DNA of 41,977 nt from a virus (lineage: Duplodnaviria; Heunggongvirae; Uroviricota; Caudoviricetes), in IMG/VR virus record IMGVR_UViG_2563366853_000004, positions 1-41,977 of that record; one strand, given 5' to 3'. Under the pieces are notes generated by a model. It did not search any database. It saw only the letters and a list, made by a program, of their open reading frames with translations, and was not told the origin of the DNA. A program made the translations under genes and the position numbers. Positions 1,346 through 25,528 of the stretch are shown here, piece after piece; positions within the stretch are counted from its first letter, which is position 1, and every line of letters starts with the position of its first letter.

Positions 1346-1418
1346 GTTGGCATTATAAAAAAGCATTTCTTATCAACTTGTTGCAACGAACAGGTCACTA
1401 TCAGTCAAAATAAAATCA

Positions 1419-2489
1419 TTATTTGATTTCAATTTTGTCCCACTCCCTGCCTCTGTCATCACGATACTGTGATGCCATGGTGTCCGACTTATGCCCGAGA
1501 AGATGTTGAGCAAACTTATCGCTTATCTGCTTCTCATAGAGTCTTGCAGACAAACTGCGCAACTCGTGAAAGGTAGGCGGATCCCCTTCGAAGGAAAGAC
1601 CTGATGCTTTTCGTGCGCGCATAAAATACCTTGATACTGTGCCGGATGAAAGCGGTTCACGACGAGTAGATGCAATTATGGTTTCTCCGCCAAGAATCTC
1701 TTTGCATTTATCAAGTGTTTCCTTCATTGATATCCCGAGAGCATCAACATGCAATGTTGTAGGGATGGCAATTTTTACGCCTGTTTTGCTTTGCTCGACA
1801 TAAAGATATCCATCTACGATATCAGACCACTTCATTTCGCATAAATCACCAACTCGCTGCCCGGTAACAACAGCCAGTTCCATTGCAAGTCTGAGCCAAC
1901 ATGGTGATGATTCTGCTGCTTGATAAATTTTCAGGTATTCGTCAGCCGTAAGTCTTGATCTCCTTACCTCTGATTTTGCTGCGCGAGTGGCCGCGACCGG
2001 GTTTGTTGTTATATGGCCTTCAGCTATTGCCTCTCGGAATGCATCGCTCAGTGTTGATCTGATTAACTTGGCTGACGCCGCCTTGCCCTCGTCTATGTAT
2101 CCATTGAGCATTGCCGCAATTTCTTTTGTGGTGATGTCTTCAAGTGGAGCATCAGGCAGACCCCTCCTTATTGCTTTAATTTTGCTCATGTAATTTATGA
2201 GTGTCTTCTGCTTGATTCCTCTGTTGGCGAGGATTTTTTCGTAGCGATCAAGCCATGAATGTAACGTAACAGAATTATCACTGTTGATTCTCGCTGTCAG
2301 AGGCTTGTGTTTGTGTCCTGAAAATAACTCAATGTTGGCCTGTATTGCTTCAGTGATTGCTATCCTCCTGTCTCGGCCTAATCCAAACTCTTTACCCGTC
2401 CTTGGGTCCCTATAGCAGTAATATCCATTGTTTCTTATATAAAGATTAGGGGGTAAATCCCGGCGCTCATGACTTCGCCTTCTTCCCAT
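1419..2489 (-). CDS. int: Lambda-type integrase (tyrosine recombinase)
   Basis: 356-aa translation beginning MGRRRSHERRDLPPNLYIRNNGYYCYRDPRTGKEFGLGRDRR… is essentially lambda Int as I recall it. Confidence 0.95.
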   Translation of the reverse strand: MGRRRSHERRDLPPNLYIRNNGYYCYRDPRTGKEFGLGRDRRIAITEAIQANIELFSGHKHKPLTARINSDNSVTLHSWLDRYEKILANRGIKQKTLINYMSKIKAIRRGLPDAPLEDITTKEIAAMLNGYIDEGKAASAKLIRSTLSDAFREAIAEGHITTNPVAATRAAKSEVRRSRLTADEYLKIYQAAESSPCWLRLAMELAVVTGQRVGDLCEMKWSDIVDGYLYVEQSKTGVKIAIPTTLHVDALGISMKETLDKCKEILGGETIIASTRREPLSSGTVSRYFMRARKASGLSFEGDPPTFHELRSLSARLYEKQISDKFAQHLLGHKSDTMASQYRDDRGREWDKIEIK

Positions 2490-2685
2490 TTCTGATCCTC
2501 TTCAAAAGGCTACCTGTTACTGGTCGATTTAAGTCAACCTTTACCGCTGATTCGTGGAACAGATACTCTCTTCCATCCTTAACCGGAGGAGGGAATATCC
2601 TGCACTCGCGTACCCATCGACGAACTGTTTCAAGGCTTCTTGGGCGTCGCTGGCGTGCGTTCCACTCCTGAAGTGTCAAGTACAT
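2467..2685 (-). CDS. xis: Excisionase
   Basis: 72-aa translation MYLTLQEWNARQRRPRSLETVRRWVRECRIFPPPVKDGREYLFHESAVKVDLNRP… matches lambda Xis; overlaps the int start as in lambda. Confidence 0.95.
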   Translation of the reverse strand: MYLTLQEWNARQRRPRSLETVRRWVRECRIFPPPVKDGREYLFHESAVKVDLNRPVTGSLLKRIRNGKKAKS

Positions 2686-2697
2686 CGCAAAGTCTCC

Positions 2698-2711
2698 GCA
2701 ATTACACGCAA
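2698..2711 (-). promoter_or_regulatory. pI-type CII-dependent promoter element (TTGC-N6-TTGC) at the xis 5' end
   Basis: Minus-strand sequence TTGCGTGTAATTGC, the same motif and position as lambda pI. Confidence 0.6.
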
Positions 2712-2790
2712 GAAAAGCCGCATTGATGCGGCAATGGTAGGTCTGGATATCTTGAGAAATGAACAGGCCTCATCGAGTATGAGGCTGTGG

Positions 2791-3135
2791 TTAGTCCTTG
2801 CGTAACTCGCTAATTCTTCTGTAAGTCTCTGGTGCTTTGTTTCCGTGTATCTTCATTTCAGACTTCAACAGAGCAACGAGGGAATCCCATTCGTTGAGGA
2901 TTCCTTTGAATGCCGGAACGCGCTTTGCAACCTTGTCGAATGAATCTCTGATTTCTGGAATCTGCTCAACAAGTGCAACGCATCGCCGAAAGTCTGCTGC
3001 GTCATGGGGAGCGCCGAAGTGATGACCATAGATATTCTTTTTCAGTCCACATGCGATTGAGGCAAGAGTTGCGCTACTGATGCCGACATCGCCAGTCGAT
3101 TGCCATTTCAAAACCTTCATAGCCAAATCTGACAT
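2791..3135 (-). CDS. Hypothetical protein (not a lambda gene)
   Basis: ORF with GGAG 7 nt upstream of the ATG at 3135 (MSDLAMKVLKWQSTGDVG…); same strand as the leftward operon; not recognised. Confidence 0.5.
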   Translation of the reverse strand: MSDLAMKVLKWQSTGDVGISSATLASIACGLKKNIYGHHFGAPHDAADFRRCVALVEQIPEIRDSFDKVAKRVPAFKGILNEWDSLVALLKSEMKIHGNKAPETYRRISELRKD

Positions 3136-3212
3136 TTCTTGTCTCCAATAAAAAACCGCCATCAGGCGGATTGGTGTTCTTTCAGTTCTTCAATTCGAAT
3201 ATTGGTTACGTC

Positions 3213-3524
3213 TTATTCGATGCGCAATCCTGGTATTTCGCCTTTTGATATTGCTAAGTCATAAATTTGCGCAGCACTATACCCATCTCGCATCCATGAA
3301 TCTAAGGCGCGAACAGTCTCGCTACGCTTTTTATCTTCTCTCTCATTTTTGATATCAACGAGGACATCAACGCAATTAAGGCAAATGTGGATTTTGTCCT
3401 TACATTCAATCATGGCGGCTTTACCATGATTTCCGCCACACAGTGAGCATAAATCTTCAGGGTCTGGCTGGTATTTCTGTAACGTTAGAGTGTTGAATGT
3501 TGAACAGACCATAATCATCTCCAT
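3213..3524 (-). CDS. Hypothetical Cys-rich (Zn-finger-like) small protein
   Basis: 103-aa ORF with C-x2-C … C-x2-C spacing (CSLCGG … CLNC); alternative ATG starts at 3518 and 3512; no clear SD. Confidence 0.45.
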   Translation of the reverse strand: MEMIMVCSTFNTLTLQKYQPDPEDLCSLCGGNHGKAAMIECKDKIHICLNCVDVLVDIKNEREDKKRSETVRALDSWMRDGYSAAQIYDLAISKGEIPGLRIE

Positions 3525-3583
3525 AAAACAAAACCCGCCGTAGCGAGTTCAGATAAAAGAAATCCCCGCTAGTGCGAGGATTG

Positions 3584-4789
3584 TTATTCATTGCCGATAT
3601 TCACCTTTATCGCGAACACCTTTACCGGTTTATCACCGAAGTGCGGATGTGTGATTGTCTTGATTTCATATCCGTCATACGGGACGTCAATTCTGCGACT
3701 GAAATCGTCGCGCTTCGGATATCCCTTTGTGATAATCAGGCGGCCATACTCGCGGAACATGATTCGCTTATTCCAGTAGTCATTACACAGGCGATACTCT
3801 TCCGTCTTCTCTCCGCGAATCATGGCATCGAAGTATTCACCTTTAACGGCAAGTTGCAGGTTAGCCACGGTTAACTCCTGCTTCGGTGCTGCTGGCATTT
3901 CACGCCAGTGCGTAACTGAGTGCGGATCCGGATATTCGGTGCCATCATCCCAGCGATTACCATTCCACATTGCAGACCACATCTCACCGTCTTCATACAT
4001 GACCATTACCGGAATTAACTTATCCGGCATTCGCTCACTACAGCTTATCCAACCATCCGGAGTTACCGGAGAGTTGCCAGCCAGTCTACGCAAAACAGCC
4101 TTAACCGCCTCAATACGGTCATCATCGCAATTTTCCAGCGTATCTATGCGGTCGAGCATGATGATGGCGTTATCAATATCAGGATTGCCGGTCCACTCAT
4201 TACCGCGATTGGATTCGGCAGCCTGGTTGCCACGTACTGGTTGATTCTCGGCTTTACCCTGTCTGTCGTCGCTGCATGAATGCCCTTCCAGCCAGACCAG
4301 TGCTTGTCGCATGAAATACGCAATATGCTTGCCGTGGTAATCGTCTTCATCGATGTGAAAAGCGATACTGCGGATATATTCAATTGCGTTTTCAATGGCC
4401 TCTAACGCTATCGGTGCTGGCGGAGTGGTATATAGTTTTCGACATTTGTTTATCCAACCGGCATGGTCAGGCGTGTCTGTAAAGCGCAAATCGTCTTCGT
4501 AGCCCTCACGACTACGTTCTTTCCATTCCGTCCACGGAACACCGCTATTCCAAGTGGGGCGAGTGCAGGACTGATACAGAACAGGCTCTGCTTCCAGCGA
4601 TGCCAGCACAATTCGTGCCAGCTCACGCACTACTTCCGGGGGCGCGTAACGGTCATTCAGGTCATCCCACAGGCGTAGCATGTTATCGCTACTAGGGTGA
4701 ACATCCTCGTTAGTTCCGGCAAGCGCACTAATAACCTCATCGGCTGCCTCAATAATTTTCAGAGCTTGTTCTCTGGTAATAGTGGTCAT
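3584..4789 (-). CDS. Multidomain protein: unknown N-terminal region, DUF551-like middle segment, ASCH/PUA-like C-terminal domain
   Basis: 401-aa ORF; the DGWISCSERMP…THWREMP segment resembles DUF551 of lambdoid early-left proteins; the C-terminal KGEYFDAMIRGEKTEEYR…ITKGYPK segment resembles ASCH. Domain calls are from memory. Confidence 0.6.
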   Translation of the reverse strand: MTTITREQALKIIEAADEVISALAGTNEDVHPSSDNMLRLWDDLNDRYAPPEVVRELARIVLASLEAEPVLYQSCTRPTWNSGVPWTEWKERSREGYEDDLRFTDTPDHAGWINKCRKLYTTPPAPIALEAIENAIEYIRSIAFHIDEDDYHGKHIAYFMRQALVWLEGHSCSDDRQGKAENQPVRGNQAAESNRGNEWTGNPDIDNAIIMLDRIDTLENCDDDRIEAVKAVLRRLAGNSPVTPDGWISCSERMPDKLIPVMVMYEDGEMWSAMWNGNRWDDGTEYPDPHSVTHWREMPAAPKQELTVANLQLAVKGEYFDAMIRGEKTEEYRLCNDYWNKRIMFREYGRLIITKGYPKRDDFSRRIDVPYDGYEIKTITHPHFGDKPVKVFAIKVNIGNE

Positions 4790-4799
4790 TTGTTATGCC

Positions 4800-4997
4800 T
4801 CAATACACGAAATCTGTTTTAAATTCATGGTTACATTCTGGACAGCATGTTTCGTAACCTTTTATTTCTTCACATGCCTGTTTAGCTCCAGAAAACTCCC
4901 AGAAATCTGGATCACAAAGCAGATCGAAATTGTGACCACATTTGGGACATTCGGTATCAAGTGACAGACTCCAGTAAGCAGGGGTATTTTTATCCAT
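4800..4997 (-). CDS. Small Zn-ribbon protein (double CxxC)
   Basis: AGGAG 6 nt upstream of the ATG at 4997 (MDKNTPAYW…); CPKCGHNF…CCPECNHEF motifs. Confidence 0.55.
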   Translation of the reverse strand: MDKNTPAYWSLSLDTECPKCGHNFDLLCDPDFWEFSGAKQACEEIKGYETCCPECNHEFKTDFVY

Positions 4998-4998
4998 A

Positions 4999-5187
4999 TC
5001 ACTCTCCTTTAGTGCGCAAGTGGTTTTTCCAGAGGTTTTGCGCCGCGCTGGGCTTTTTGCAAAACCCACAATCCATCATCCCGTAATATTTCATCAACCC
5101 CATCCGTCGGTTGCTGAGTCTCACCCACTGCCAGACGCCAGGAGCGTTTCTACGAACTAACAGAATCTTTGCTTTACGGTTTTTCAT
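4999..5187 (-). CDS. Small basic ORF (MKNRKAK…), uncertain
   Basis: 62-aa ORF whose stop abuts the start of the Zn-ribbon gene; weak SD; its 5' end is repeated at 5341..5360. Confidence 0.3.
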   Translation of the reverse strand: MKNRKAKILLVRRNAPGVWQWVRLSNRRMGLMKYYGMMDCGFCKKPSAAQNLWKNHLRTKGE

Positions 5188-5532
5188 CTTACTGCGTACC
5201 CTTTCTTCCGCCTGTTCTGTGACGCAGTAGGCTTACGCTTTGCGGCAAAAGCCACCTGACCAAATGGATGGAGTACCGCTATCTTATGGTTGCTAATAAC
5301 CAGCTCCACCACACGCACAGGTCGCTGTAAAAAAAGTCGTTTTGCCTTACGGTTTTTCATCGCTTTGCTCTCCTGCGTCTCTTTGCTGCTCGTCGTGCCG
5401 CTGCAATACCGGTATGGCGGCGCTTTGGTACTGGGGTGATGTTGTCAGCCATCAGGACCTGTGGCTTTGCAATTAGCGCAGAAGCCCAAAAACGAGTCGG
5501 GTACGGTAACAAGCCAATACATGCCACACGCA

Positions 5533-6087
5533 CTACTCACCTCCGTTGATGCGAATGCCTGTTGCAATGCTGTTTATGATGCTGTCAGTGCATGGGGTAG
5601 AAAGCTGGGCATCTCCAGCAATTTTCATGACATCAACATCTGCATATCGAATACCGAGGTGTATCAGACCGGCTATACCTGACTTAAGCCGAGCATTTTC
5701 CATAAACAGATCCTTTGCCCGCTGTTTTTCTGCCTCAAGCTCAACGCGCAACTTCCCTACCGTTAACGCAATATCCTCGTTCTCCTGGTCGCGGCGTTTG
5801 ATGTATTGCTGGTTTCTTTCCCGTTCATCCAGCAGCGCCAGTACGGTAGCCGGATTGGCTGCGGCGATGAATTCAGCATTGGCCTGCTGTTCCATTTGGA
5901 AATCTTCATCGAAACCGCTTTCAGGATGTGCTCCTTCAATTCTGCAAATGGGAAGATATCCAACAACTTCACGATGAATTAACGCATCATCACAATCAAA
6001 TCGGCTCTCTCCATATTCGAGCGACCATACACCACACGTTGCTTTTTCTGCCTTGGCACGCAGTGCCTGATAGTCAATCTTGCTCAC
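5533..6087 (-). CDS. Ead/Ea22-like early protein
   Basis: N-terminus [21 protein letters not shown]… and the AEFIAAANPATVLALLDE motif recalled from the Ea22-like family. Confidence 0.6.
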   Translation of the reverse strand: MSKIDYQALRAKAEKATCGVWSLEYGESRFDCDDALIHREVVGYLPICRIEGAHPESGFDEDFQMEQQANAEFIAAANPATVLALLDERERNQQYIKRRDQENEDIALTVGKLRVELEAEKQRAKDLFMENARLKSGIAGLIHLGIRYADVDVMKIAGDAQLSTPCTDSIINSIATGIRINGGE

Positions 6088-6599
6088 TGGTTGCCTCCTT
6101 TGCGAAGTTTCGCGGCAAAATCAGCCGCAACCTCTTTGACCATATTGGAAAGCGGAGTGCCACCTCCGAATTTTTCTGAGAACATCTCCACGCCCTGTGC
6201 CCGCAGTTCCGACAGGAAAGCGTCGGTGGCTTGGGTTTCGATATCGTTAATTTCAGGAAGAATCTCTTCCCATGTAGCGATATCGCCATTCAAATGCCAT
6301 CCGGCAATTCCACTGGAGTTATCCGCAACACTGCGAACGGCTTCAATAGTTTCATGCATTGCCGCATTCTCCGCTGCCAGCGCCGAAAACTTCTCGTGTG
6401 CCAACTTAACAGCCGCATCAGCCTGCTTAATTGACTCAATCGCTTTCTGGTGGTCTTCGGACAGAGCCGAAATCTTGGCCTCCGCTTCAGCAAATTTACG
6501 CACCAGATATTCAGCGTTTGTTTCGTTAACCTTTAAATCTCGTGGGATGCATTTACCTTTCAGAAAACCATCCATCTCAATTAGTGACATTTGTTTCAT
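6084..6599 (-). CDS. Hypothetical coiled-coil protein
   Basis: ORF track gives a GTG start at 6617; an ATG at 6599 overlaps the upstream stop as ATGA; overlaps the downstream gene start. Confidence 0.5.
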
Positions 6600-6760
6600 T
6601 TCTTCCCACTCCGCCACATCGCATTCAGATATTTGTTTTGATTCACTGATGGAAACGAGTTTTGCTTAAGTAATTCCTCTCTCGATGGCATTGGCTTTAC
6701 GCGTTGGCGAATAATCATTTCTGCCGGAAGAATGCCGGGATTGTATGCAAGTCCTCTCAT
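6596..6760 (-). CDS. Small hypothetical protein (54 aa)
   Basis: Hand-translated ORF below the track cutoff, coupled by ATGA overlaps at both ends (6757..6760 and 6596..6599). Confidence 0.35.
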
Positions 6761-7038
6761 GATTTACTCTCAACGAACTGGTCAATAGCCATGCTAAGTG
6801 ACACACCTAAAGTCTCGATATGCTGCTGAATATCCTGTAGCGTCTGCGCCTGAGATAACAGGATTTCACGGTTGCATAACTCTTTAACCAGATGCTCAAA
6901 CTTGCTGTAATAACCGATACGACTTAGTGTTTCTTTCCCTGCATTCTCGCCTTCTTTGATAATTCCTCTTTCGCTAAGAATCAGATCGTGTTTGGTTCCG
7001 GTGATAACGTATTTGCCGAGGTCGATGTTTAGCTTCAT
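6757..7038 (-). CDS. Hypothetical protein
   Basis: 93-aa ORF in the leftward operon; not recognised. Confidence 0.45.
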
Positions 7039-7054
7039 TGTTAATTATTCCATG

Positions 7055-7369
7055 TTAATTTATTCGTATGCCTGCTCTTTCTTCATCGAGTTTTTTTAGC
7101 TTGTATCGCATAGCCCTTACTGAATAAATTGAGCGGCAGGTTGCAATTGCTATTTCTTCTGCGGAGAACTTACCGAAAAGTGATACTTCTGCTCTTGTCC
7201 AGCGTCTTCCACGAAGTCGGCTAACAATGTCAGCGCCAATCCTTGTTGCTTTCGCCATAACTGCTTTTTCAGTCCTTTCCAGTTTTTCAGCAATAACTTC
7301 AACTGGCATTGTCGCCGATACTTCGCGCAAGAAATCGACTTCCCATTTCTCCCATGGAGTCTTTTTCAT
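7055..7369 (-). CDS. Hypothetical protein
   Basis: 104-aa ORF in the leftward operon; not recognised. Confidence 0.45.
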   Translation of the reverse strand: MKKTPWEKWEVDFLREVSATMPVEVIAEKLERTEKAVMAKATRIGADIVSRLRGRRWTRAEVSLFGKFSAEEIAIATCRSIYSVRAMRYKLKKLDEERAGIRIN

Positions 7370-7380
7370 AGGCGATACCG

Positions 7381-7869
7381 TTATTTGATAAGAAGTGAAG
7401 GTTTCCCAACCTTGAGTTGAGCACCGGGAATATTTATTCCTGCTTTTAGTTGGTGCTTGATTGCCAGTTTGTCGGCTTTAATTGTCGTTTCAAACTCAAC
7501 GTATTCAGGAGGAAGGGCGCTTGAGTCGATTATTTCTACAATTTCTGACGGTTTGCGGATTGTTACCTGGTGAATACCTGCTCGAATATTTTTCTTGCCA
7601 ACCATTTCAAGCGATGACGCTATATATGATTTGATGCTGTCAATCTTATTTTGAATTACTGCGGCTCGCTCATTCAGTGACTTTGCCTCTTCCTTGAGGC
7701 GTTCGGCATAACCAGATTCATTTTTAATGACGGAAAGAAGTTGTTCTATTTTATCGGTAAATTCTCCTTCCATGCCTTCTATTGTGTCAGCAATCATCTC
7801 TGGTTCTAAATCTGAATCCATCAATTTTGCGTATTCATTGGCAATTTCATATAGTTTGCTCACTGGCAA
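7381..7869 (-). CDS. Siphovirus Gp157-like protein (RecT-associated)
   Basis: 162-aa translation resembles the Gp157 family usually found next to RecT-type recombinases; overlaps the recT 3' end. Confidence 0.55.
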   Translation of the reverse strand: MPVSKLYEIANEYAKLMDSDLEPEMIADTIEGMEGEFTDKIEQLLSVIKNESGYAERLKEEAKSLNERAAVIQNKIDSIKSYIASSLEMVGKKNIRAGIHQVTIRKPSEIVEIIDSSALPPEYVEFETTIKADKLAIKHQLKAGINIPGAQLKVGKPSLLIK

Positions 7870-8758
7870 CCTCCAGTTTCGCTTTGCATTCTATGTAAAT
7901 GGCTTGTACGTTCTGCTGCAATTTCATTCCAGATGTCAGGCGATATGCTTCTGCAAAATATCTCTTCAAATCATCCATGTTTTCAGCCTGAGCCATTTCA
8001 TCACAAAGAAGTTGTGCTTTTTCCGTTATTTCCTGCTGGCGTTTCCGTTCATCTTCGCGGATATCTTCCTCTGATTTATGCGGCATAACTGGTTCAGTCC
8101 ACACACCTTCTTCTTCGTTTAGTACGTGAATAGCACTATCAAGACGTGATGCCTTAGGCCAATACTTGCTTGCACGCTTTACGACCGTCTTTCGCGCCAT
8201 CTCATTCCAGTGATTTACCCATGGTCCTTTATCGCTGAATGCTGCCTTGCTTGTTTTCCTTACAGCCTCAATTTCAGCCAGACTCATCTCTTCCGTTAGA
8301 TAATCACCTGCTGGCGTCTTAACTGTGCAGTAAACGCCAACGATATCACCACGATCACCGAAGGCGTTGTATTTATGGGTTGGTGCTTTATCAAGCCCGT
8401 TTGACTCATAGGTATCGTTAGCATGAACAAGTTTTGCCTGACCCCATGAGATAACACCAGACTCCATTGCAATATGGAGCAATCCCATATAGCTGATATC
8501 AAGGCAAACCATGCCATCGCGCGGAACCAGATAAGCCAGTTTGCTTGCAGGGTTTAAGGTGATGCCGATCGCCGCAACATTGATGATGGCGTTCTGTGCG
8601 CTGGTTGGATTTGCCAGTGCTGTTTTAGCCAGGTAATCATTTTTCTGGAAATACTGAATTGCAAACTGGCTTTCCTTAGCCCATGTCACCGTCTGTTCAG
8701 TCAATGCTCCGCAGAATAACTGCTCCTGCTGTTTAACGAATTCAACGATATTGCTCAT
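7847..8758 (-). CDS. recT: RecT-family single-strand annealing recombinase
   Basis: 303-aa ORF; KGPWVNHWNEMARKTVVKRASKYWP resembles the conserved RecT segment NGPWVTHWEEMAKKTAIRRLFKYLP recalled from Rac RecT. Confidence 0.8.
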   Translation of the reverse strand: MSNIVEFVKQQEQLFCGALTEQTVTWAKESQFAIQYFQKNDYLAKTALANPTSAQNAIINVAAIGITLNPASKLAYLVPRDGMVCLDISYMGLLHIAMESGVISWGQAKLVHANDTYESNGLDKAPTHKYNAFGDRGDIVGVYCTVKTPAGDYLTEEMSLAEIEAVRKTSKAAFSDKGPWVNHWNEMARKTVVKRASKYWPKASRLDSAIHVLNEEEGVWTEPVMPHKSEEDIREDERKRQQEITEKAQLLCDEMAQAENMDDLKRYFAEAYRLTSGMKLQQNVQAIYIECKAKLEVASEQTI

Positions 8759-9066
8759 GCTGCTTCTCCATAAATGTGTCTGCGTTTGAATATTGCGAAG
8801 GCATATTCAGCCTTAACTCTTTCGGTTATTGCATCCCAGAACCATTCAGCGGCTTTTTCCTGATAGTTACAATCATCATCTTCCAGCCAGTCGATAGCGT
8901 CCTTAGTGTGTTCATCTGGTTTATATGAGCGAAGCATTTCGCTTATTGGGTCGCAACGTTTGCAGAGGCGATCAACTTCACTGTTGATTCGCTCGTAATC
9001 TTCATCAGTAAAACTTGCGATTATTTGCGATATTTCACGCTTATCATTCAGAGTCAGAATCATCAT
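8755..9066 (-). CDS. Hypothetical protein
   Basis: 103-aa ORF with AGGAG 4 nt upstream; stop overlaps the recT start (ATGA). Confidence 0.5.
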   Translation of the reverse strand: MMILTLNDKREISQIIASFTDEDYERINSEVDRLCKRCDPISEMLRSYKPDEHTKDAIDWLEDDDCNYQEKAAEWFWDAITERVKAEYAFAIFKRRHIYGEAA

Positions 9067-9147
9067 CTTTCTCCTGTTCTTTGTGCTGATTGAGCATTTT
9101 GTTCATCTGACGAATGAATTCTTCGTCTGACCAGTTATCTGTAAAAC

Positions 9148-9300
9148 TCATTTCCTGCGATACCACGGAAGGTTGATAGCTGATTTCATCGCTTTATTTG
9201 CTTCAAGCCACATTTTTGAATCACCAATAAATCTGGCTATTACTGCTTTGTTCTGTGCAGCACGAAGCATCTGGTGATTAATGGCTATTTCATTGCGCAT
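9148..9300 (-). CDS. kil: Kil-like host-killing peptide (candidate FtsZ inhibitor)
   Basis: Hand-translated 50-aa ORF with GAGG 7 nt upstream; the IARFIGDSKMW segment resembles my recollection of lambda Kil; sits just downstream of cIII as in lambda. Confidence 0.45.
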   Translation of the reverse strand: MRNEIAINHQMLRAAQNKAVIARFIGDSKMWLEANKAMKSAINLPWYRRK

Positions 9301-9410
9301 AATAAGACCTCAACTCTTTTCCATCCGTCACGTAATTTACTGGTGATTCGTTCAAGTAAAGATTCGGAAGGGCAGCCAGCAACAGGCCACCCTGCAATGG
9401 CATATTGCAT
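9285..9410 (-). CDS. cIII: CIII-like FtsH inhibitor with shortened, divergent C-terminus
   Basis: MQYAIAGWPVAGCPSESLLERITSKLRDGWKR matches the lambda CIII N-terminus and core; GGAG upstream of the ATG at 9410; ends after 41 aa versus 54 in lambda. Confidence 0.75.
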   Translation of the reverse strand: MQYAIAGWPVAGCPSESLLERITSKLRDGWKRVEVLLCAMK

Positions 9411-9631
9411 GGTGTGCTCCTTATTTATACATAACGAAAAACGCCTCGAGTGAAGCGTTATTGGTATGCATATAAAAAGGCCCTCACACTGGAGGGCAAA
9501 GAAGATTTCCAATAATCAGAACAAGTCGGCTCCTGTTTAGTTACGAGCGACATTGCTCCGTGTATTCACTCGTTGGGATGAATACACAGTGCAGTGTTTA
9601 TTCTGTTGTTAGTGCCAAAAATAAAGGCCGA

Positions 9632-10255
9632 CTATGCGGCCTCGGAAGGAAGTCCAATCATCTTATTCAAATCTTCTACCCGTAAAGCAGGAAGTGCTGT
9701 ACTTGCTTTATCTGCTTCTTTTGGTAGCAATTCTTTGCTTTCAGGCCAAACTTCAATAAGTCGCTTAACTGTTGTGACTGAGTTCAAAGCAGCCCATACA
9801 TTTGATTCGATATCCTTTTTCTTGGCTTCAAGTTTTTGTTGCAATGCGCAGATTTCATCAAACCTTTTTGTTATTTCGTGTTCTGCGCTAAACATGCATT
9901 TATCTTTGGTCGGAGTAGGGAGCAATATATCTTCGCCGTTGCCGTCTTTCCCATATGAATGCCATCCAACCCTTCTGCCAGATACAGTCAGATAAATTGA
10001 AGTAGAACTAACATCGTATGAGTAAAATGAACATCCCATCTTTTCAAGTTCTTCACTTATAGCTACCAACTTGGATGATAACTGATCCACTTCCTCAGTT
10101 TTCTTTTTACCGCCAAACGCAATAACTCTGGCGTCAAGTGCAAGCTGGTTCTTTAACTTTGTTACTTCTTCAAGTTCAGTGAAAACCCCAGACTTAATTA
10201 AAGCGTTACGAGCGATTTCCTCTTTCATTCTCGTAGTTAAGCGGATTGATGACAT
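9632..10255 (-). CDS. Hypothetical 207-aa protein immediately downstream of N, AT-rich
   Basis: GAGG 7 nt upstream of the ATG at 10255 (MSSIRLTTRMKEEIARNAL…); no TM segments or recognisable motifs; occupies the ral/sieB position of the pL operon. Confidence 0.6.
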   Translation of the reverse strand: MSSIRLTTRMKEEIARNALIKSGVFTELEEVTKLKNQLALDARVIAFGGKKKTEEVDQLSSKLVAISEELEKMGCSFYSYDVSSTSIYLTVSGRRVGWHSYGKDGNGEDILLPTPTKDKCMFSAEHEITKRFDEICALQQKLEAKKKDIESNVWAALNSVTTVKRLIEVWPESKELLPKEADKASTALPALRVEDLNKMIGLPSEAA

Positions 10256-10266
10256 ATTAATTCCTC

Positions 10267-10593
10267 TCAAATAAGTGGTTTGCTGCCTAATTTCATTTTC
10301 TGGCGACCAACACAAGTCACGCCCATTTCACTGCGTGGCTTGCTGTACCATGTGCGCTGATTCTTGCGCTCAATACGTTGCAGGTTGCTTTCAATCTGTT
10401 CGTGGTATTCAGCCAGCACCGTAAGGTCTATCGGATTCAGTGCGCTTTCTACTCGTGATTTCGGTTTGCGATTCAGCGAGAGAATAGGGCGGTTAACTGG
10501 TTTTGCGCTTACCCCAACCAACAGGGGATTTGCTGCTTTCCATTGAGCCTGTTTCTCTGCGCGACGTTCGCGGCGGCGTGTTTGTGCATCCAT
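10267..10593 (-). CDS. N: Antitermination protein N
   Basis: MDAQTRRRERRAEKQAQWKAANPLLVGVSAKPVNRPILSLNRKPKSRVESALNPIDLTVLAEYH… is lambda N with a few C-terminal differences. Confidence 0.95.
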   Translation of the reverse strand: MDAQTRRRERRAEKQAQWKAANPLLVGVSAKPVNRPILSLNRKPKSRVESALNPIDLTVLAEYHEQIESNLQRIERKNQRTWYSKPRSEMGVTCVGRQKMKLGSKPLI

Positions 10594-10703
10594 CTGGATT
10601 CTCCTGTCAGTTAGCTTTGAGTAACGCGCCGTGATGCTTATCTCCACGGTTGCTGTCTTGCAGCTGCATTTCGCGCTACTCAAAGCCTTCTGCTTTGAAT
10701 GCT

Positions 10704-10734
10704 GCCCTTCTTCAGGGCTTAATTTTTAAGAGCG
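10704..10734 (-). promoter_or_regulatory. nutL (boxA CGCTCTTAAAAA and boxB GCCCTGAAGAAGGGC on the leftward transcript)
   Basis: Reverse complement of 10704..10734 gives lambda boxA and the boxB hairpin upstream of N. Confidence 0.85.
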
Positions 10735-10860
10735 TCACCTTCATGGTGGTCAGTGCGTCCTGCTGATGGCTAAATAGTACGATTTGTACTTTATCGAGTC
10801 AATACAAAATGTTCTAAATATAATTGGTTTTTTATAACACTTTGTATTTAATGGGTTTAT
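10735..10860 (-). promoter_or_regulatory. pL/OL region (leftward early promoter with candidate operator half-sites)
   Basis: Lies between the cI terminator and nutL; contains the inverted repeat AGTACgatttGTACT; operator sequences differ from lambda, consistent with the different repressor N-domain. Confidence 0.45.
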
Positions 10861-10863
10861 ATT

Positions 10864-10897
10864 TTGGAAAAAGAAAACCCGACGCTAAGGTCGGGTT
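10864..10897 (-). terminator. Rho-independent terminator downstream of cI
   Basis: Hairpin AACCCGAC-gctaag-GTCGGGTT followed by a U-tract on the minus strand, about 30 bp after the cI stop. Confidence 0.6.
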
Positions 10898-10927
10898 ATT
10901 GTTGTGTGTTTTAGAGTGGTGAGGCTG

Positions 10928-11586
10928 TTAACTAAATGTCTCTTCAGGCCACTGGCTGGCGATAACTTTCCCTACTACGGAACAGCTATCATTGCATGGA
11001 ATCATTGGATATTGCGGGTTTAGTGGCTGTAGGAACACCTGACCGCTATCCCTGATCAGTTTCTTGAAGGTAAACTCGTCACCACCAAGTCTGGCTATGC
11101 AGAAATCACCTGGCTCAACAGCCTGCTCAGGGTCAACGAGAATTAACATCCCGTCAGGAAAGCTTGGCTTGGATCCTGTTGGCGCGGTCATGGAATTACC
11201 TTCAACTTCAAGCCAGAACGCACAATCACTGGCTTTTTTGGTTGTGCTGACCCATCTCTCCGCATCACCTTTGGTAAAGGTTCTAAGCTCAGGCGAGAAC
11301 ATCCCGGCCTGAACATGAGAAAAAACAGGGTACTCATATTGTTTTTTAACGGGGGCAGATGAGTATTCGCCAACAGGTGAAAATGTACCGTCGTGGTTGA
11401 ATGAGACGTTATCAATACCAAGGTATTTAAACACCACACCAATCTCGTCAAGAGATGGATGACGAGATCCGCGCAACCAGTGACCAATTCCACCCTGCGT
11501 CATACCAAGCTCTTCAGCTAACTTCTCTTGAGTTATGCCGAGCTCTTTCATTCTGGATCTAGCCAGTTCATACCATTTCATTTTCA
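10928..11586 (-). CDS. cI: CI-type repressor: lambda C-terminal domain fused to a non-lambda N-terminal HTH domain
   Basis: The C-terminal ~130 aa ([38 protein letters not shown]…[15 protein letters not shown]) are near-identical to lambda CI; the N-terminal ~95 aa ([37 protein letters not shown]…) are not. Start is 11586 or 11580. Confidence 0.85.
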
Positions 11587-11698
11587 TACCCTTATTATTA
11601 CGCTCTGTACTAAAACCATCCATGCACAAGATGTATTTTTTGTTTGCATTCTAAAAGTACATATCGTATTATTGTTTCATGGTTACTATGGAGGGCAT
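11587..11698. promoter_or_regulatory. OR/pRM/pR divergent promoter-operator region
   Basis: 112-bp AT-rich interval between divergent cI and cro, containing AGTAC-type motifs (AAAGTACATATCGTATT) similar to the OL side. Confidence 0.55.
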
Positions 11699-11914
11699 AT
11701 GAGCAACCTACGAAAATATCGAGAGTCACTGAATATCTCTCAAACAACACTTGCTAAGGCAGTTGGATGCACACAGGGAGCTATCGGACATTGGGAATCT
11801 GGTCGTCGCTTCCCAGACCTTAAAACATGCCGTGCTCTTGTTGAGTGCCTAAACAAGTTAGGCGCAAAAGTCAGTCTTGATGACGTGTTCCCGCCGGAAC
11901 ACAAAGCCGCTTAA
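11699..11914 (+). CDS. cro: Cro-like HTH repressor (XRE family, not lambda Cro)
   Basis: GGAGGG SD; MSNLRKYRESLNISQTTLAKAVGCTQGAIGHWESGRRFP… shares the TQGxIGHW helix motif with the CI N-domain. Confidence 0.8.
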   Translation: MSNLRKYRESLNISQTTLAKAVGCTQGAIGHWESGRRFPDLKTCRALVECLNKLGAKVSLDDVFPPEHKAA

Positions 11915-11922
11915 GACATTCC

Positions 11923-11955
11923 AGCTCTTACACATCCCAGCCCTGAAAAAGGGCA
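11923..11955 (+). promoter_or_regulatory. nutR (boxA GCTCTTACA, boxB GCCCTGAAAAAGGGC)
   Basis: Exact lambda boxB hairpin and boxA-like element between cro and cII; the tR1 region follows. Confidence 0.85.
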
Positions 11956-12033
11956 TCAAATTAAACCACACCTATGGTGTATGCATTTATTTGCATACAT
12001 TCAATCAATTGTTATCTAAGGAAATACTTACAT

Positions 12034-12327
12034 ATGGTTCGTGCAAACAAACGCAACGAGGCTCTACGAATCGAGAGTGCGTTGCTTAACAAAATCGCAA
12101 TGCTTGGAACTGAGAAGACAGCGGAAGCTGTGGGAGTTGATAAGTCGCAGATCAGCAGGTGGAAGAGGGACTGGATTCCAAAGTTCTCAATGCTGCTTGC
12201 TGTTCTTGAATGGGGCGTCGTTGACGACGACATGGCTCGATTGGCACGACAAGTTGCTTCGATTCTCACCAATAAAAAACGCCCGGCGGCAACCGAGCGT
12301 TCTGATCAAATCCAGATGGAGTTCTGA
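12034..12327 (+). CDS. cII: Transcriptional activator CII
   Basis: [75 protein letters not shown]… is lambda CII. Confidence 0.95.
12042..12055 (-). promoter_or_regulatory. pRE CII-binding site (TTGCGTTTGTTTGC) within the cII 5' end
   Basis: Minus-strand TTGC-N6-TTGC repeat at the same position as lambda pRE. Confidence 0.75.
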
Positions 12328-12359
12328 GGTCATTACTGGATCTATCAACAGGAGTAATT

Positions 12360-12506
12360 ATGACAAAACAACTCAGTCCTTACCAGGACAAAATTCACAA
12401 ACACATACTACGTGATCGCTTCCTGTCCAGCTTCAAGCAGCCTGGTCGATTCCGGGCTGAGTTGGAAAAAGTGAAGCTGATGCAGAAGGAGAAAGGTCAT
12501 GAGTAA
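12360..12506 (+). CDS. Small hypothetical ORF between cII and the replication initiator
   Basis: Hand-translated 48-aa ORF with CAGGAG upstream; overlaps the O-like gene start; uncertain. Confidence 0.3.
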
Positions 12507-13359
12507 TCTTGCAACCGTAACACATTTAAGGCCTTCACAACGGCCTGTGGAGCGTTGTGTGGCAGAAGTTGAAGATGGTTATACCCGTCTTGCAAATGCC
12601 CTGTATGAAGAGCTTATCGGCGCTGATTTAACGAAAAATCAGAGCAAGGTTGCCCACGCCATATGCCGTAAAACATACGGCTACGGTAAAAAGATGGATC
12701 GCATCTCTGATAGTCAGTTAGCTCAAATTACCAGGCTGCCAAGACAGAAGGTAAACAAGGCCAAGAATGAGCTTATCGCGATGAAGGTTATCCTTCGCGA
12801 AGGCCAGCAAATCGGGCCTAACAAGAACATCGAGGAATGGCAAATCGAAGGATGTCACTACACTGGTGATAATGTCACTGCATTGGTGACAAAAAGTGTC
12901 ACCAAAACGGTGACAGCGCTGTCACCAAAACAGGGACACACAAAAGAAACTATTACAAAAGAAAAAAGAAATAATAAAAACACTATGTCCGAAAGTGTTC
13001 GGACGGAGTGTGAAAAATCACCTGACCGTCACGAAGAAACCGACAAGGCATTCGAGGAAATATTCTGGTGTGCAGGCATGCGAAAAGCCGGGAAGAAAAA
13101 CGCAGCTTCAGCATTCAGAACACAGTTCAGGGAATGGCGTAAAACTACAAGGGGTACGGCAAGCGAGTTTGCCACGATGCTGGCAGAAGACATCGCATGC
13201 AGGAATGGTAAGCAGTTCGGATTCGACAGGTTGTTACCATCGAGCTACCTGAACGGTCAGCGCTGGAACGACGAAAAGCCAGAAACCATTCAACCACAAT
13301 CCAAACCATCATCCGCAATCACCGTATCGAAAACTGGCTACGTGTTTTTCGACAGGTGA
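12499..13359 (+). CDS. O-like replication initiator (iteron-binding)
   Basis: 286-aa ORF at the lambda O position with the replication origin embedded in mid-gene, as in lambda O; sequence is not lambda O. Confidence 0.7.
12853..12990. repeat. Replication origin: four ~19-bp iterons plus an AT-rich tract
   Basis: TGTCACTACACTGGTGATA, ATGTCACTGCATTGGTGACA, AGTGTCACCAAAACGGTGACA, GCTGTCACCAAAACAGGGACA in tandem, then an A-rich stretch (AAACTATTACAAAAGAAAAAAGAAATAATAAAAACACT). Confidence 0.75.
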
Positions 13360-13466
13360 ACCATGAAATCAAAAATCAAATCGCTACTGGTCGCTGGTTA
13401 TAACCACGGCTGGTTAAGTATTTCGTTTGTCGATTTCTGGTTTAAAAATCTCAATCTGAGGGAATC

Positions 13467-15347
13467 ATGACGCCAAGTGAACTTAGCGACCTGCTTTGGG
13501 CGCAGGTTGACAGGGTGGCTCCGCACCTGTTGCCAAACGGCAAGAAAGAGGGGCATGAGTGGGTTGCCGGTAACGTCAACGGTGACAAGGGAAACAGCCT
13601 TAAGGTCAACCTTAGCGGCAAGAAAAAATGGGCTGATTTCGCTGAGGGAGACGGCGGTGACATGCTTGATTTGTGGATGTCATGTCGTGGAATTAACCTG
13701 CATCAGGCTATGCAGGAAGCGAAAGCATTTCTCGGTATCAAGGATGACGATCACCATTTCGATGCCAAACGTGAGAAGAAATTCTCCAGACCTGATCGCA
13801 AGAAAATCGCCCGCTACGTTACCAGAACAGAATCCCATCTTGAGTACCTGCAATCGCGTGGCATATCGCCAGAAGTCGTAAAGCGCTACGAGGTTGTCAG
13901 CGGCAAGGTGTGGAATGGAGAGCGGGAACTGGATGCTCTGGTGATTCCGTACAAACGCGATGGTGAGTTGTTGCAGGTCAAGCGAATCAGCACTGAGCGC
14001 CCGGACGGGAAGAAAGTCATTATGGCAGAAGGTGATTGCGAACCTTGTCTGTTCGGATGGCAGGCTCTGGACGCTGGCGTGAGGGCGGTTGTACTTTGCG
14101 AAGGCGAAATTGATTGTATGAGCTATGCGCAATACGGCATCTCGGCGTTATCCGTGCCGTTTGGTGGCGGGAAAGGCGCTAAGCAGCAGTGGATTGAGTT
14201 TGAGTATCACAATCTCGACAGGTTTGAGGAAATATTCATCTCGATGGACGTTGATGATGTTGGTCGTGAAGCCGCAAGGGAAATCGCAAGCCGACTCGGT
14301 GAACATCGTTGCCGTCTTGTTACTCTGCCGTACAAAGACATCAACGAATGCCTGATGAACGGTGTTACCGAGGATGAAATCTGGCAGTACATCGGCACGG
14401 CATCCTACTTCGATCCTGAAGAACTCTACAGCGCGCGAGAGTTTTACCAGGACACTATCAACGCTTTCTACGGCAAGCAGCAGTATCTGTTTAATCCACC
14501 GTGGGAATCTCTGGCAGATAAATTCCAGTTCCGTGAGGCCGAGTTGACGCTGGTCAATGGTGTGAACGGTCACGGAAAAACGGAGGTTGTCGGGCATATG
14601 GCACTTGAGGCAATGCGTCAGGGTGTGAAGACGTGCATCGCGTCACTTGAGCTGAAGCCAGGCATTCTCCTTAAGAGACTTACCCGTCAGGCGACGTGCT
14701 GCAAGATGCCGCCAGTGCTGGAAATTGACTCTGCATTTAAATTTTATGACGAAAGACTTTGGGTGTTTGGCCTGACCGGAACGGCGAAAGCCGACAGGCT
14801 GATCGAAATATTCGACTACGCTCGCCGCCGATACGGCATCCAGTTATTCATCATCGACAGCCTGATGAAATGTGGCATAGGCGACGATGACTATAACGGG
14901 CAGAAAGCGTTTGTTGACTCGATTTGCGATTTCAAAAACAAAACAAACTCCCACGTCATTCTCGTTACTCACTCGCGAAAAGGTGACAGCGAAGAAAAAC
15001 CAACCGGGAAAATGGACGTAAAAGGCTCTGGAGCGATAACAGACCTGACAGACAACCTTTTCATCATCTGGCGTAACAAGGCTCGCGAGAGAGCGTTACA
15101 GAGAGTTCAGAGTGGTGAAAAGATGTCAGAGAAGGACGAACAGCTACTGGCATCTCCGGCATCTGTTTTGATGCTTGAAAAACAACGTAACGGCGAAGGT
15201 TGGGAAGGTGGTGTCCCGTTGTTCCTTGACGAGCAATCGCACCAGTTCCTGCAACTTGAATCAGGATCGCCATATAGCTACATCGCCAATATGCCGAAAT
15301 CGGAATATGACGAGGCGTGGCGACAGGAAAACGTGACGGAGTATTAA
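13467..15347 (+). CDS. Bifunctional DNA primase (Toprim) and DnaB-like replicative helicase
   Basis: 626-aa ORF with GAGGG SD; N-terminal acidic motifs (VVLCEGEIDCMSY…ISMDVDDVG) suggest Toprim; C-terminal Walker A-like GVNGHGKTE and Walker B-like LFIIDSLM suggest a DnaB/RecA-fold helicase. Replaces lambda P. Confidence 0.75.
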   Translation: MTPSELSDLLWAQVDRVAPHLLPNGKKEGHEWVAGNVNGDKGNSLKVNLSGKKKWADFAEGDGGDMLDLWMSCRGINLHQAMQEAKAFLGIKDDDHHFDAKREKKFSRPDRKKIARYVTRTESHLEYLQSRGISPEVVKRYEVVSGKVWNGERELDALVIPYKRDGELLQVKRISTERPDGKKVIMAEGDCEPCLFGWQALDAGVRAVVLCEGEIDCMSYAQYGISALSVPFGGGKGAKQQWIEFEYHNLDRFEEIFISMDVDDVGREAAREIASRLGEHRCRLVTLPYKDINECLMNGVTEDEIWQYIGTASYFDPEELYSAREFYQDTINAFYGKQQYLFNPPWESLADKFQFREAELTLVNGVNGHGKTEVVGHMALEAMRQGVKTCIASLELKPGILLKRLTRQATCCKMPPVLEIDSAFKFYDERLWVFGLTGTAKADRLIEIFDYARRRYGIQLFIIDSLMKCGIGDDDYNGQKAFVDSICDFKNKTNSHVILVTHSRKGDSEEKPTGKMDVKGSGAITDLTDNLFIIWRNKARERALQRVQSGEKMSEKDEQLLASPASVLMLEKQRNGEGWEGGVPLFLDEQSHQFLQLESGSPYSYIANMPKSEYDEAWRQENVTEY

Positions 15348-15428
15348 ATGACCATCTACATCACTGAGCTGATAGCAGGCCTGCTGGTAATCGCAGGCCT
15401 TTTTATTTGGGGGAGAGGGAAGTCATGA
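15348..15428 (+). CDS. Tiny hydrophobic ORF (26 aa)
   Basis: [26 protein letters not shown]; start abuts the upstream stop (TAAATG) and its stop overlaps the ninB start; uncertain. Confidence 0.25.
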   Translation: MTIYITELIAGLLVIAGLFIWGRGKS

Positions 15429-15865
15429 AAAAACTAACCTTTGAAATTCGATCTCCAGCACATCAGCAAAACGCTATTCACGCAGTACAGCAAATCCTTC
15501 CAGACCCAACCAAACCAATCGTAGTAACCATTCAGGAACGTAACCGCAGCTTAGACCAGAATCGAAAGCTTTGGGCTTGCCTTGGTGACGTCTCTCGTCA
15601 GGTTGAATGGCATGGTCGCTGGCTGGATGCAGAAAGCTGGAAGTGCGTTTTTACAGCAGCATTAAAGCAGCAGGACGTTGTTCCTAACCTTGCCGGGAAT
15701 GGCTTTGTGGTAATAGGCCAGTCAACCAGCAGGATGCGTGTAAGCGAATTTGCGGAGCTATTAGAGCTTATACAGGCATTCGGTACAGAGCGTGGCGTTA
15801 AGTGGTCAGACGAAGCTCGACTGGCTCTGGAGTGGAAAGCAAGATGGGGAGACAGGGCGGCATGA
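15425..15865 (+). CDS. ninB: NinB (Orf-family recombination mediator)
   Basis: [56 protein letters not shown]… matches lambda NinB. Confidence 0.9.
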
Positions 15866-18780: not shown

Positions 18781-18823
18781 CAGCATGATTGCCACGGATG
18801 GCAACATATTAACGGCATAATAT

Positions 18824-18851: not shown

Positions 18852-18857
18852 TGACCC

Positions 18858-23386: not shown

Positions 23387-23388
23387 AC

Positions 23389-25515: not shown

Positions 25516-25528
25516 CCAGGAGTAATCA

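Follow-up and report, generated by a model that had tools for sequence, protein, structure and literature searches.

A RecT annealase module with Gp157 and without a phage exonuclease in a lambdoid prophage

Zheng et al. (2025, Genome Res, PMC12315714) surveyed 246 lambdoid Rec modules and record the absence of a nuclease from 84 of them, about a third, as in P22. Their P22 functional class, in which an anti-RecBCD protein accompanies a single-strand annealing protein (SAP) without a nuclease, comprises 46 phages, and Chi sites are reported to be mostly absent from phages with anti-RecBCD genes. HK140 is described in the same text as a combination of a RecT-type annealase (SAP-4) and a 'MuGam' anti-RecBCD protein, without a nuclease and without an SSB. 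Assistance of the annealase by host nucleases is the view accepted there for nuclease-less lambdoid Rec modules, with P22 as the paradigm and HK140 named (PMC12315714).

The P22 module (arf-erf-abc1-abc2) lies between kil and the ea genes and relies on host nuclease activity, and its Abc2 hijacks RecBCD. The modules of lambda Red (gam-bet-exo) and phi80 (gamL-rec-exo) are composed of three slots, namely a small inhibitor-type gene, an annealase gene and a partner gene. Phage Mu encodes Gam, a Ku-like dsDNA end-binding protein; its gam gene is adjoined by a small HTH gene of phrog_323 (Mu gp9) and not by an annealase gene. Mu Gam protects DNA ends, and we know of no report of a nuclease activity for it.

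We analysed a window of 41,977 nucleotides, positions 1 to 41,977 of the IMG/VR virus record IMGVR_UViG_2563366853_000004. The Rec module found in it consists of a RecT annealase, a translationally coupled Gp157, orf103 upstream and the Abc1-like orf104 downstream, with no phage exonuclease. The locus is probably an HK140-type nuclease-less lambdoid Rec module in a P22-like prophage at att-lambda, operating by the mechanism proposed below. The module DNA was 97-98% identical to that of phages HK140, mEpX1, Kapi1, Gally, Louie and vB_EcoP-683R2. In HK140 and mEpX1, orf103, recT, gp157 and orf104 stand in the same order and in the same early-left position, likewise with no nuclease, no SSB and no Chi sites; there is essentially no difference within the module, whereas the mosaic around it does not match, this prophage having int/xis of the lambda type at att-lambda and other ea genes. 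The description of HK140 in print covers two module genes only and leaves orf103 and the Abc1-like orf104 undiscussed (PMC12315714).

Compared to P22, this prophage also carries its Rec module, without a nuclease, between kil and the ea genes, with a putative Abc1-family protein (orf104) and a tiny acidic ORF in the position of arf. It differs from P22 in that the annealase is RecT instead of Erf, that no counterpart of Abc2 was found, and that the place of the RecBCD modifier is taken by the Mu Gam-like Gp157. Compared to lambda Red and phi80, the operon position and the three slots are the same, but the Exo slot holds Gp157, without nuclease homology, and the inhibitor slot holds orf103.

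Gene content of the prophage and the search for a nuclease

The entire prophage (38.9 kb) lies within the window, flanked by ybhC (1..1284) and ybhB/bioA (40262 onward), so an exonuclease hidden beyond the window is not an issue. The early-left genes are arranged in the order N, Nmad5 protein, cIII, kil, 40-aa ORF, orf103, recT, gp157, orf104 ... xis, int, with the annealase (SAP) gene of this early-left operon placed between kil and int. The ORFs named in a preliminary description of this DNA were all found in place on the minus strand (Table 1).

Table 1. Genes of the RecT-Gp157 module, its neighbours and the early-right recombination gene
Feature	Coordinates	Strand	Description
orf93	6757..7038	-	DUF5405 (PF17399, 1.7e-5); phrog_154
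orf104	7055..7369	-	basic tandem-HTH protein; by profile comparison a remote homologue of P22 Abc1 and Mu gp9
gp157	7381..7863 (ORF 7381..7869)	-	160 aa, Sipho_Gp157 family; putative dsDNA-end-binding/end-protecting RecT partner
recT	7847..8758	-	303 aa, single-strand annealing protein (SAP-4 type of Zheng et al.)
orf103	8755..9066	-	conserved acidic (pI 4.65), all-helical protein, translationally coupled to recT
40-aa acidic ORF	9044..9166	-	arf position of P22 (between kil and Rec genes)
ninB/orf	15407..15865	+	lambda Orf-type recombination mediator, early-right operon; PF05772 NinB, 1.3e-54

By its profile matches, RecT is an annealase of the RecT family, with scores above the curated thresholds of PF03837 (E 2.9e-32, 112.3 bits, cut-off 24) and TIGR00616 (82.4 bits, cut-off 52.65); it also matched phrog_148 (3e-92). 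Gp157 matched PF05565 over profile positions 1-162 of 162 (E 2.4e-37, 128.9 bits, cut-off 28.6). These matches bore out the earlier claim that lambda gam/bet/exo is replaced here by RecT and Gp157. The start codon ATG of recT overlaps the stop codon of orf103 (ATGA). The true start of gp157 is probably the GTG at 7863, with GGAGG 7 nt upstream, which was preferred because homologues are 160 aa; with it, the beginning of gp157 and the end of recT overlap by 17 nt.

Searches with Pfam, PHROGs and NCBIfam covered all early-left ORFs, together with ORFs of the remaining early region, the nin region and the lysis genes and further minus-strand ORFs, all outside the head and tail genes; none of them matched a nuclease family. 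With lambda Exo and the RecE-like (DUF3799) exonuclease of SEN22 as tblastn queries, no match was obtained in the window, and no Exo/YqaJ or RecE/DUF3799 exonuclease gene, as in modules of the lambda Red or RecET type, adjoins recT. The statement of the preliminary description that RecE, Exo and YqaJ nucleases are absent among the neighbours stood in all of these searches, including the HMM search of the neighbouring ORFs for nuclease folds that it had proposed and that was run here with family profiles. No SSB gene was found in the module, and Gam, GamL and Abc2 were all absent from it; ninB/orf is the sole other recognisable recombination gene of the prophage. Chi GCTGGTGG was present zero times on both strands of the 38.9-kb prophage; as chance alone would give about 0.5 per strand, this absence carries little weight by itself.

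We compared the module with 183 related loci, a non-independent sample with many near-identical prophages; a second scan of viral contigs, with Gp157 of HK639 as the query, yielded mostly loci already in the sample. Hosts of these loci include Citrobacter, Enterobacter, Serratia, Erwinia, Yokenella, Siccibacter and Leclercia. In nearly all of the loci gp157 lies directly 3' of recT, the stop codon of recT overlapping the start codon of gp157. The tblastn queries used on the window, lambda Exo and the RecE-like protein of SEN22, revealed no gene of either kind in any of the 183, and the ten commonest large neighbouring ORFs (of 156 clusters) showed no nucleases when compared with Pfam. RecT with Gp157 and without an exonuclease is an arrangement already published (2025) and common, a point missed in the preliminary description.

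The same loci bear on the notion that the module is a decayed remnant, in which an exonuclease gene was lost and recT-gp157 no longer forms a working recombination system. This we regard as highly improbable: the overlapping frames are intact in the plaque-forming phages HK140, mEpX1, Kapi1, Louie and Dewey, and the architecture is kept across genera while identity falls to 33% for orf103 and ranges from 57 to 99% for Gp157 across the 183 loci. Maintenance of the architecture at such low identity requires purifying selection on the gene set as it stands.

Gp157, Mu Gam and the C-terminal domain of RecT

Gp157 matched phrog_253, annotated 'Mu Gam-like end protection', at 5e-54. In hhalign comparison, a deep Gp157 profile aligned to the Mu Gam profile with a probability of 83% and E 8.5e-6 over 114 colinear columns, whereas reversed-sequence controls gave E 0.22 and 0.23. 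Deeper profiles were needed for this result; when a shallow profile of Gp157 was compared with Mu Gam as a single sequence, E was 0.045. These comparisons support Gp157 as a remote homologue of phage Mu Gam, and the two proteins are of similar size (160 and 174 aa, respectively). The similarity is remote only: the Mu Gam model PF07352 did not match Gp157 at E up to 0.1, and the two belong to distinct Pfam and PHROG families (phrog_491 and phrog_2205 for Mu Gam, phrog_253 for Gp157). In the AF2 model of Gp157 (pLDDT 80), a single long helix (21-88) is accompanied by a small beta domain at the C-terminus, and the alignment to Mu Gam spans this domain. A PDB sequence search with Gp157 returned chance-level matches only.

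The literature searched contained no experimental work on a member of the Gp157 family. Zheng et al. class Gp157 as a 'MuGam' anti-RecBCD protein (PMC12315714), and orf157-like genes of Firmicutes phages share a position beside erf and sak4 with Mu gam-like ones (PMC8093625). Gp157 is handled in the field as a putative end-protection or anti-RecBCD protein of the Mu Gam type and is no chance companion of recT, which is the second point missed in the preliminary description.

Two parts make up RecT, a conserved annealase core (approximately residues 1-222) and a C-terminal domain of some 80 aa that is partner-specific. Identity to phi80 Rec amounts to 61.5% in the core and to no more than 17.8% in the C-terminal part, the C-terminal domains of the two proteins being unrelated; relative to RecTs that have Gp157 next downstream, the C-terminal part is 47-73% identical. 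The C-terminal 80 residues vary with the downstream partner (Gp157 versus Exo), whereas the core is conserved. The gene order is GamL-RecT-Exo in phi80 and GamL-RecT-Gp157 in HK639; Gp157 occupies the slot held by Exo in phi80. Gam or GamL is found alongside Gp157 in 82 of the 183 loci (about 45%), which argues against Gp157 as simply a redundant RecBCD inhibitor.

It is conceivable, if rather doubtful, that Gp157 is not primarily anti-RecBCD but a dedicated end-binding loader of RecT, which would replace Exo at host-processed ends via the C-terminal domain of RecT, while orf103 would represent a new RecBCD-inhibitor family standing in for Gam/GamL. The exact Exo position of Gp157, the co-variation of the RecT C-terminal domain with Gp157 or Exo, and the occurrence of Gam or GamL together with Gp157 but in no locus with orf103 are in favour of such a division of labour. 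However, the argument draws on gene position throughout, and the end protection predicted from homology to Mu Gam would itself be an anti-RecBCD function.

The slot before recT and the accessory genes

Among the 183 related loci, the slot just upstream of recT was occupied by orf103, GamL or lambda Gam, never by two of them together. In loci L023 and L089, the 40-aa arf-like ORF and orf103 are swapped out for lambda Gam; in these loci and in phage Dewey, this swap is the only difference between near-identical RecT-Gp157 modules. In phage SEN22, orf103 lies upstream of another cassette, in which a 189-aa protein comes after a RecE-like exonuclease.

For orf103, a structure prediction of good confidence gives an acidic, all-alpha protein with five helices and without a nuclease-like fold. 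The protein has no Pfam match, and PDB sequence searches with orf103 and its profile returned chance-level matches only and did not recover Gam. Compared by hhalign with Gam, GamL, Abc1, Abc2 and Mu Gam, it showed nothing significant; the best result was with lambda-type Gam (E 0.007, probability 6%), GamL gave E 0.15, and a short DDxxYQE motif is the only resemblance to lambda Gam. Most likely, judging from gene position alone, orf103 fills the RecBCD-control role of Gam/GamL in sister modules. For the proposal that orf103 is the RecBCD inhibitor and Gp157 the RecT loader, the replacement of orf103 by lambda Gam in otherwise near-identical modules is a point in favour, as is its small, acidic and helical nature, which resembles that of known RecBCD inhibitors. 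The lack of significant homology to Gam, GamL or Abc2 counts against it, and the different cassette beside orf103 in SEN22 suggests that the gene may be a mere flanking one.

Downstream of gp157, orf104 matched phrog_323 (2.6e-19), the PHROG to which P22 Abc1 and Mu gp9 belong; it adjoins gp157 as Mu gp9 adjoins gam. Based on hhalign, the orf104 family aligned with the Abc1 family with a probability of 96.7% (E 4.3e-10, 78 of 94 columns) and with Mu gp9 at 91.6%. This profile evidence makes orf104 remotely homologous to Abc1, the recombination accessory protein of P22; BLASTP of orf104, orf103 and orf93 against P22 Abc1 and Abc2 gave no match. By the profile comparison, the 'Abc1' label in the record of phage Gally is not an error. 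In 177 loci with a readable downstream gene, gp157 was followed by orf104 in 94 and by a closer Abc1 homologue in 17. Further downstream, orf93 is a frequent neighbour that shows no sign of module membership and no similarity to Abc2. The 40-aa ORF matched phrog_17766 (7.6e-16) and phrog_2123 (annotated 'recombinase', 5e-10), while its BLASTP match to P22 Arf, itself in phrog_2445, was limited to 12 residues (E 0.007); whether this ORF is part of the recombination module is uncertain.

The uncharacterised genes form a compact transcription unit with recT, an arrangement that would suit a novel exonuclease replacing Exo or RecE, whether orf103, orf104, orf93, the 40-aa ORF or Gp157 itself. Foldseek comparison of the Gp157 model also gave weak matches to phage proteins annotated PD-(D/E)XK or COG5377 (E 0.03 to 2). 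These fold matches, however, are far from significance, Gp157 aligns to Mu Gam over the beta domain, and neither orf93 nor the 40-aa ORF matches a nuclease family. The preliminary description had offered, as one possibility, a new partner activity contributed by one of the small uncharacterised proteins nearby; as a nuclease, this finds no candidate in the predicted all-alpha orf103, the Abc1-like HTH protein orf104 or the DUF5405 protein orf93. We consider a novel exonuclease among these genes very unlikely.

Proposed mechanism and implications

For the HK140-type nuclease-less module, which is the reading we prefer, the following mechanism is proposed. RecT would anneal single strands; Gp157, by analogy with Mu Gam, would bind dsDNA ends and shield them from RecBCD, and it would probably act as a RecT-specific partner via the C-terminal domain of RecT. 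Single-stranded DNA for RecT would come from host helicases and nucleases or from replication forks, as in the nuclease-less Erf/Abc system of P22. The module may serve in circularising the terminally redundant, headful-packaged genome and in supporting the switch to rolling-circle replication. It counts against this mechanism that capping of the ends by Gp157 leaves resection without an account. The other possibility raised in the preliminary description, that the annealase works with a host nuclease, agrees by analogy with the accepted reading of nuclease-less lambdoid modules (P22; HK140, PMC12315714).

More speculatively, and with less confidence than in the HK140-type assignment, the module can be read as a three-slot parallel to lambda Gam-Beta-Exo. 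The Ku/Mu Gam-like Gp157 would replace the exonuclease and dock on the co-varying C-terminal domain of RecT, orf103 would be an unrecognised family of RecBCD inhibitors substituting for Gam/GamL, and the Abc1-like orf104 would be a shared accessory, because related genes also adjoin gam in Mu and abc2 in P22.

The occurrence of RecT and Gp157 without an exonuclease, as originally stated, adds nothing to the 2025 survey of lambdoid Rec modules. What is added here is the remote homology between Gp157 and Mu Gam, supported by profile comparison, the exclusive slot before recT, and the position of Gp157 in the Exo slot together with the change in the C-terminal domain of RecT. The comparative details are small, testable leads on how an annealase functions without an exonuclease of its own: the exclusivity of the slot before recT, the placement of Gp157 in the Exo slot with a changing RecT C-terminal domain, and the recurrence of an Abc1-like gene beside Gp157, beside gam in Mu and beside abc2 in the P22 module. 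They bear on the choice of accessory genes co-expressed with RecT proteins in dsDNA recombineering.

Layout of the prophage and the RecT-Gp157 genes

The window holds an entire lambdoid prophage of the P22-like kind, integrated at att-lambda; at its right end the host genes resume with ybhB and, judging by position, probably bioA. From the repressor region near 11 kb, the early-left operon extends along the minus strand and, downstream of orf93, continues with Ea-type genes, then xis and int.

The preliminary description had reported a RecT-family annealase with a Gp157-like protein, and both were securely identified. RecT matched PF03837 (Pfam, E 2.9e-32) and scored above the cut-off of TIGR00616; PF05565 covered the full length of Gp157 (Pfam, E 2.4e-37). 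orf103, recT and gp157 are tightly coupled in translation: the stop codon of orf103 and the start codon of recT overlap in ATGA, and gp157, which starts with GTG and has GGAGG ahead of it, shares 17 nt with the end of recT.

Elsewhere in the prophage, the Nmad5-domain protein falls in phrog_1965, a PHROG without assigned function. Two adjacent small ORFs, both starting MKNRKAK, look like a tandem duplication; the 58-aa one had no Pfam match. In the short nin region are NinB/Orf, a 147-aa ORF that matched no family and a gene resembling Rha/KilAC antirepressors; two minus-strand ORFs, neither with a Pfam match, come next, just before Q. No NinG/Rap junction endonuclease was recognised in this region.

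Features of the prophage (window positions) and of compared loci
Feature	Position	Strand	Remark
ybhC (host)	end at 1284		left flank of prophage
int, lambda-type	1419..2489		after ybhC
xis	2467..2685		after ybhC, with int
62-aa ORF	4999..5187	-	MKNRKAK start
58-aa ORF	5184..5360	-	MKNRKAK start
orf93	6757..7038	-	DUF5405
orf104	7055..7369	-	phrog_323
gp157	7381..7863	-	
recT	7847..8758	-	
orf103	8755..9066	-	
40-aa ORF	9044..9166	-	between kil and orf103 in gene order
kil	9148..9300	-	
cIII	within 9285..9512	-	
Nmad5-domain protein, 227 aa	9632..10315	-	between N and cIII; full-length PF18757 ("nucleotide modification associated domain 5"), E 1.6e-71
N	10267..10683	-	first of the listed early-left genes
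nin region	15407..18157	+	
ybhB (host)	40262..40738		PF01161; right end
HNH_3 insertion	L001 5161..5628		phage Louie
HNH_3 insertion	L174 5537..6004		
abc1	L003 26970..27254		P22
exonuclease cassette	L004 3317..5015		Salmonella phage SEN22
gp9	L006 2483..2782		Mu
107-aa protein	L187 904..1227		before recT
126-aa protein	L271 3694..4074		before recT

Absence of an exonuclease beside recT

Employing Pfam, PHROGs and NCBIfam, we scanned all plausible early ORFs together with those of the nin region and the lysis genes (head and tail genes not one by one), and found no match to the Exo/YqaJ, RecE/DUF3799, DnaQ or HNH families. tblastn searches of the window with two queries, lambda Exo and a RecE-like exonuclease, also yielded nothing. 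The earlier statement that recT lacks a neighbouring exonuclease thus holds. It had been read in two ways, and the reliance on a host nuclease stood, being accepted for P22 and for known nuclease-less modules, while the small neighbours gave no support to a new nuclease: orf104 is a remote Abc1 homologue and orf93 a DUF5405 protein. That a nuclease is hidden among the module proteins is very improbable.

P22 Erf/Abc, which relies on host RecBCD, is the classical example of an annealase system that lacks its own exonuclease. In the survey of Zheng et al. (PMC12315714), 84 of 246 Rec modules have no nuclease gene, and the P22 functional class, with an anti-RecBCD function and an annealase (SAP) but without nuclease and SSB, has 46 members. 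Earlier work pointed the same way: a recognised recombinase was present in only 30 of 84 phage genomes having a recE-like gene (Lopes et al. 2010, PMC2896510). Modules with an annealase but no cognate exonuclease have thus been described before and are common. The region 6700-9400 itself shares 97-98% DNA identity with phages vB_EcoP-683R2, Louie, HK140, Kapi1, Gally and mEpX1. Overall, we consider it probable that this is a known, host-dependent type of nuclease-less module.

Variation of the module among related loci

We compared 183 loci bearing Gp157 of this clade: 80 near-identical IMG/VR contigs, 81 further loci whose Gp157 is 75-99% identical to that of Enterobacter or HK639, 18 species-level genomes (57-79% identity to the window Gp157) and 4 loci from Enterobacter and Serratia. 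As these loci are not independent, the counts describe a pattern rather than a statistic. With few exceptions recT immediately preceded gp157, and no gene for lambda Exo, a RecE-like exonuclease, Erf, Bet or Abc2 was found within 5-6 kb; the ten commonest large neighbouring ORFs encode methylases, integrases, repressors and DUF551 proteins. Homologues of orf103 kept their position and the recT overlap down to 33% identity. Decay of the module is a most unlikely explanation for the missing nuclease.

The slot before recT was occupied by the orf103 family (91 loci), GamL (67) or lambda Gam (15), or by none of these (10), and never by two of them in one locus. Near-identical RecT-Gp157 modules (L023, L089 and phage Dewey) differ only in the exchange of the 40-aa ORF plus orf103 for lambda Gam. 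A Lonsdalea MAG and one IMG/VR contig (L187, L271) carry other proteins in this slot, which had no PHROG match, are not orf103, Gam or GamL, and may be further alternatives. Some relatives have the usual overlap of recT and gp157 interrupted by a homing-type endonuclease gene (HNH_3) lodged precisely between the two.

In SEN22, the same orf103/orf104 flanks enclose a RecE-like exonuclease (DUF3799) and a protein of 189 aa (phrog_11517, without Pfam match), with no recognisable annealase in the cassette; this is a clean swap for the RecT-Gp157 pair. SEN22 is listed with nuclease and SSB (PMC12315714), and we equate this SSB with the 189-aa protein.

Whereas phi80 has gamL-rec-exo, HK639 has gamL-recT-gp157, with Gp157 in place of Exo. 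The window RecT shares 61.5% identity with phi80 Rec in the annealase core but only 17.8% over the last ~80 residues; to RecTs followed by Gp157, this tail is 47-73% identical. The pattern suggests that Gp157 may contact the C-terminal domain of RecT, much as Exo contacts that of Beta in lambda Red. The varying RecT tail is one concrete case of the shuffling of partner-interaction domains guessed at by Zheng et al. (PMC12315714). Because almost half of the 183 loci also carry Gam or GamL, Gp157 appears not to be merely a second RecBCD inhibitor. The combined proposal, Gp157 as partner in the Exo slot and orf103 as a new Gam analogue, is tentative and rather doubtful.

Relationships of Gp157 and orf104, and a possible mechanism

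The PHROGs annotation of the Gp157 family (phrog_253) is "Mu Gam-like end protection", and the name used by Zheng et al. is "MuGam" (PMC12315714); Mu Gam itself is placed in other PHROGs. BLASTP of Gp157 against Mu Gam gave no match and a shallow Gp157 profile no clear one. With a deep profile (150 representatives) against a Mu Gam profile (53 distinct sequences), hhalign gave a probability of 83% (E 8.5e-6, 114 colinear columns; reversed-sequence controls, E 0.2). An AF2 model (pLDDT 80) shows a single long helix with a small beta domain, and fold searches with it were uninformative. Gp157 is thus likely a remote homologue of Mu Gam, and we infer from this homology that it may bind DNA ends. 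Our literature search found no experimental paper on a Gp157-family protein; a study of Firmicutes phages reports either an orf157-like or a Mu gam-like gene as the upstream neighbour of erf and sak4 (PMC8093625).

The basic orf104 product has two HTH-like repeats and belongs to phrog_323, together with P22 Abc1 and Mu gp9. BLASTP against Abc1 gave no match; hhalign of the orf104 family gave 96.7% with Abc1 (E 4.3e-10) and 91.6% with Mu gp9, which at the profile level bears out the "Abc1" label of the Gally record. orf93 showed no similarity to Abc2. Small tandem-HTH proteins belonging to phrog_323 adjoin Gp157 in the window, gam in Mu and abc2 in P22, and this recurrent pairing suggests that Abc1-like proteins act with end-protection or anti-RecBCD proteins.

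Gp157 would bind and shield DNA ends and bring RecT to them, single strands would come from host enzymes or replication, and orf103 would control RecBCD. The window has a single copy of the Chi site (GCTGGTGG), at 40553 within host ybhB, and neither strand of the prophage (1350..40200) carries one. Such an absence fits the rule by which phages encoding anti-RecBCD functions are devoid of Chi (PMC12315714), but is weak evidence since ~0.5 sites per strand are expected by chance. The module would circularise the headful-packaged genome and support late replication. The finding as first worded was already known, and the observation itself is confirmed; modest new leads come from orf103, from orf104 and from the C-terminal domain of RecT.
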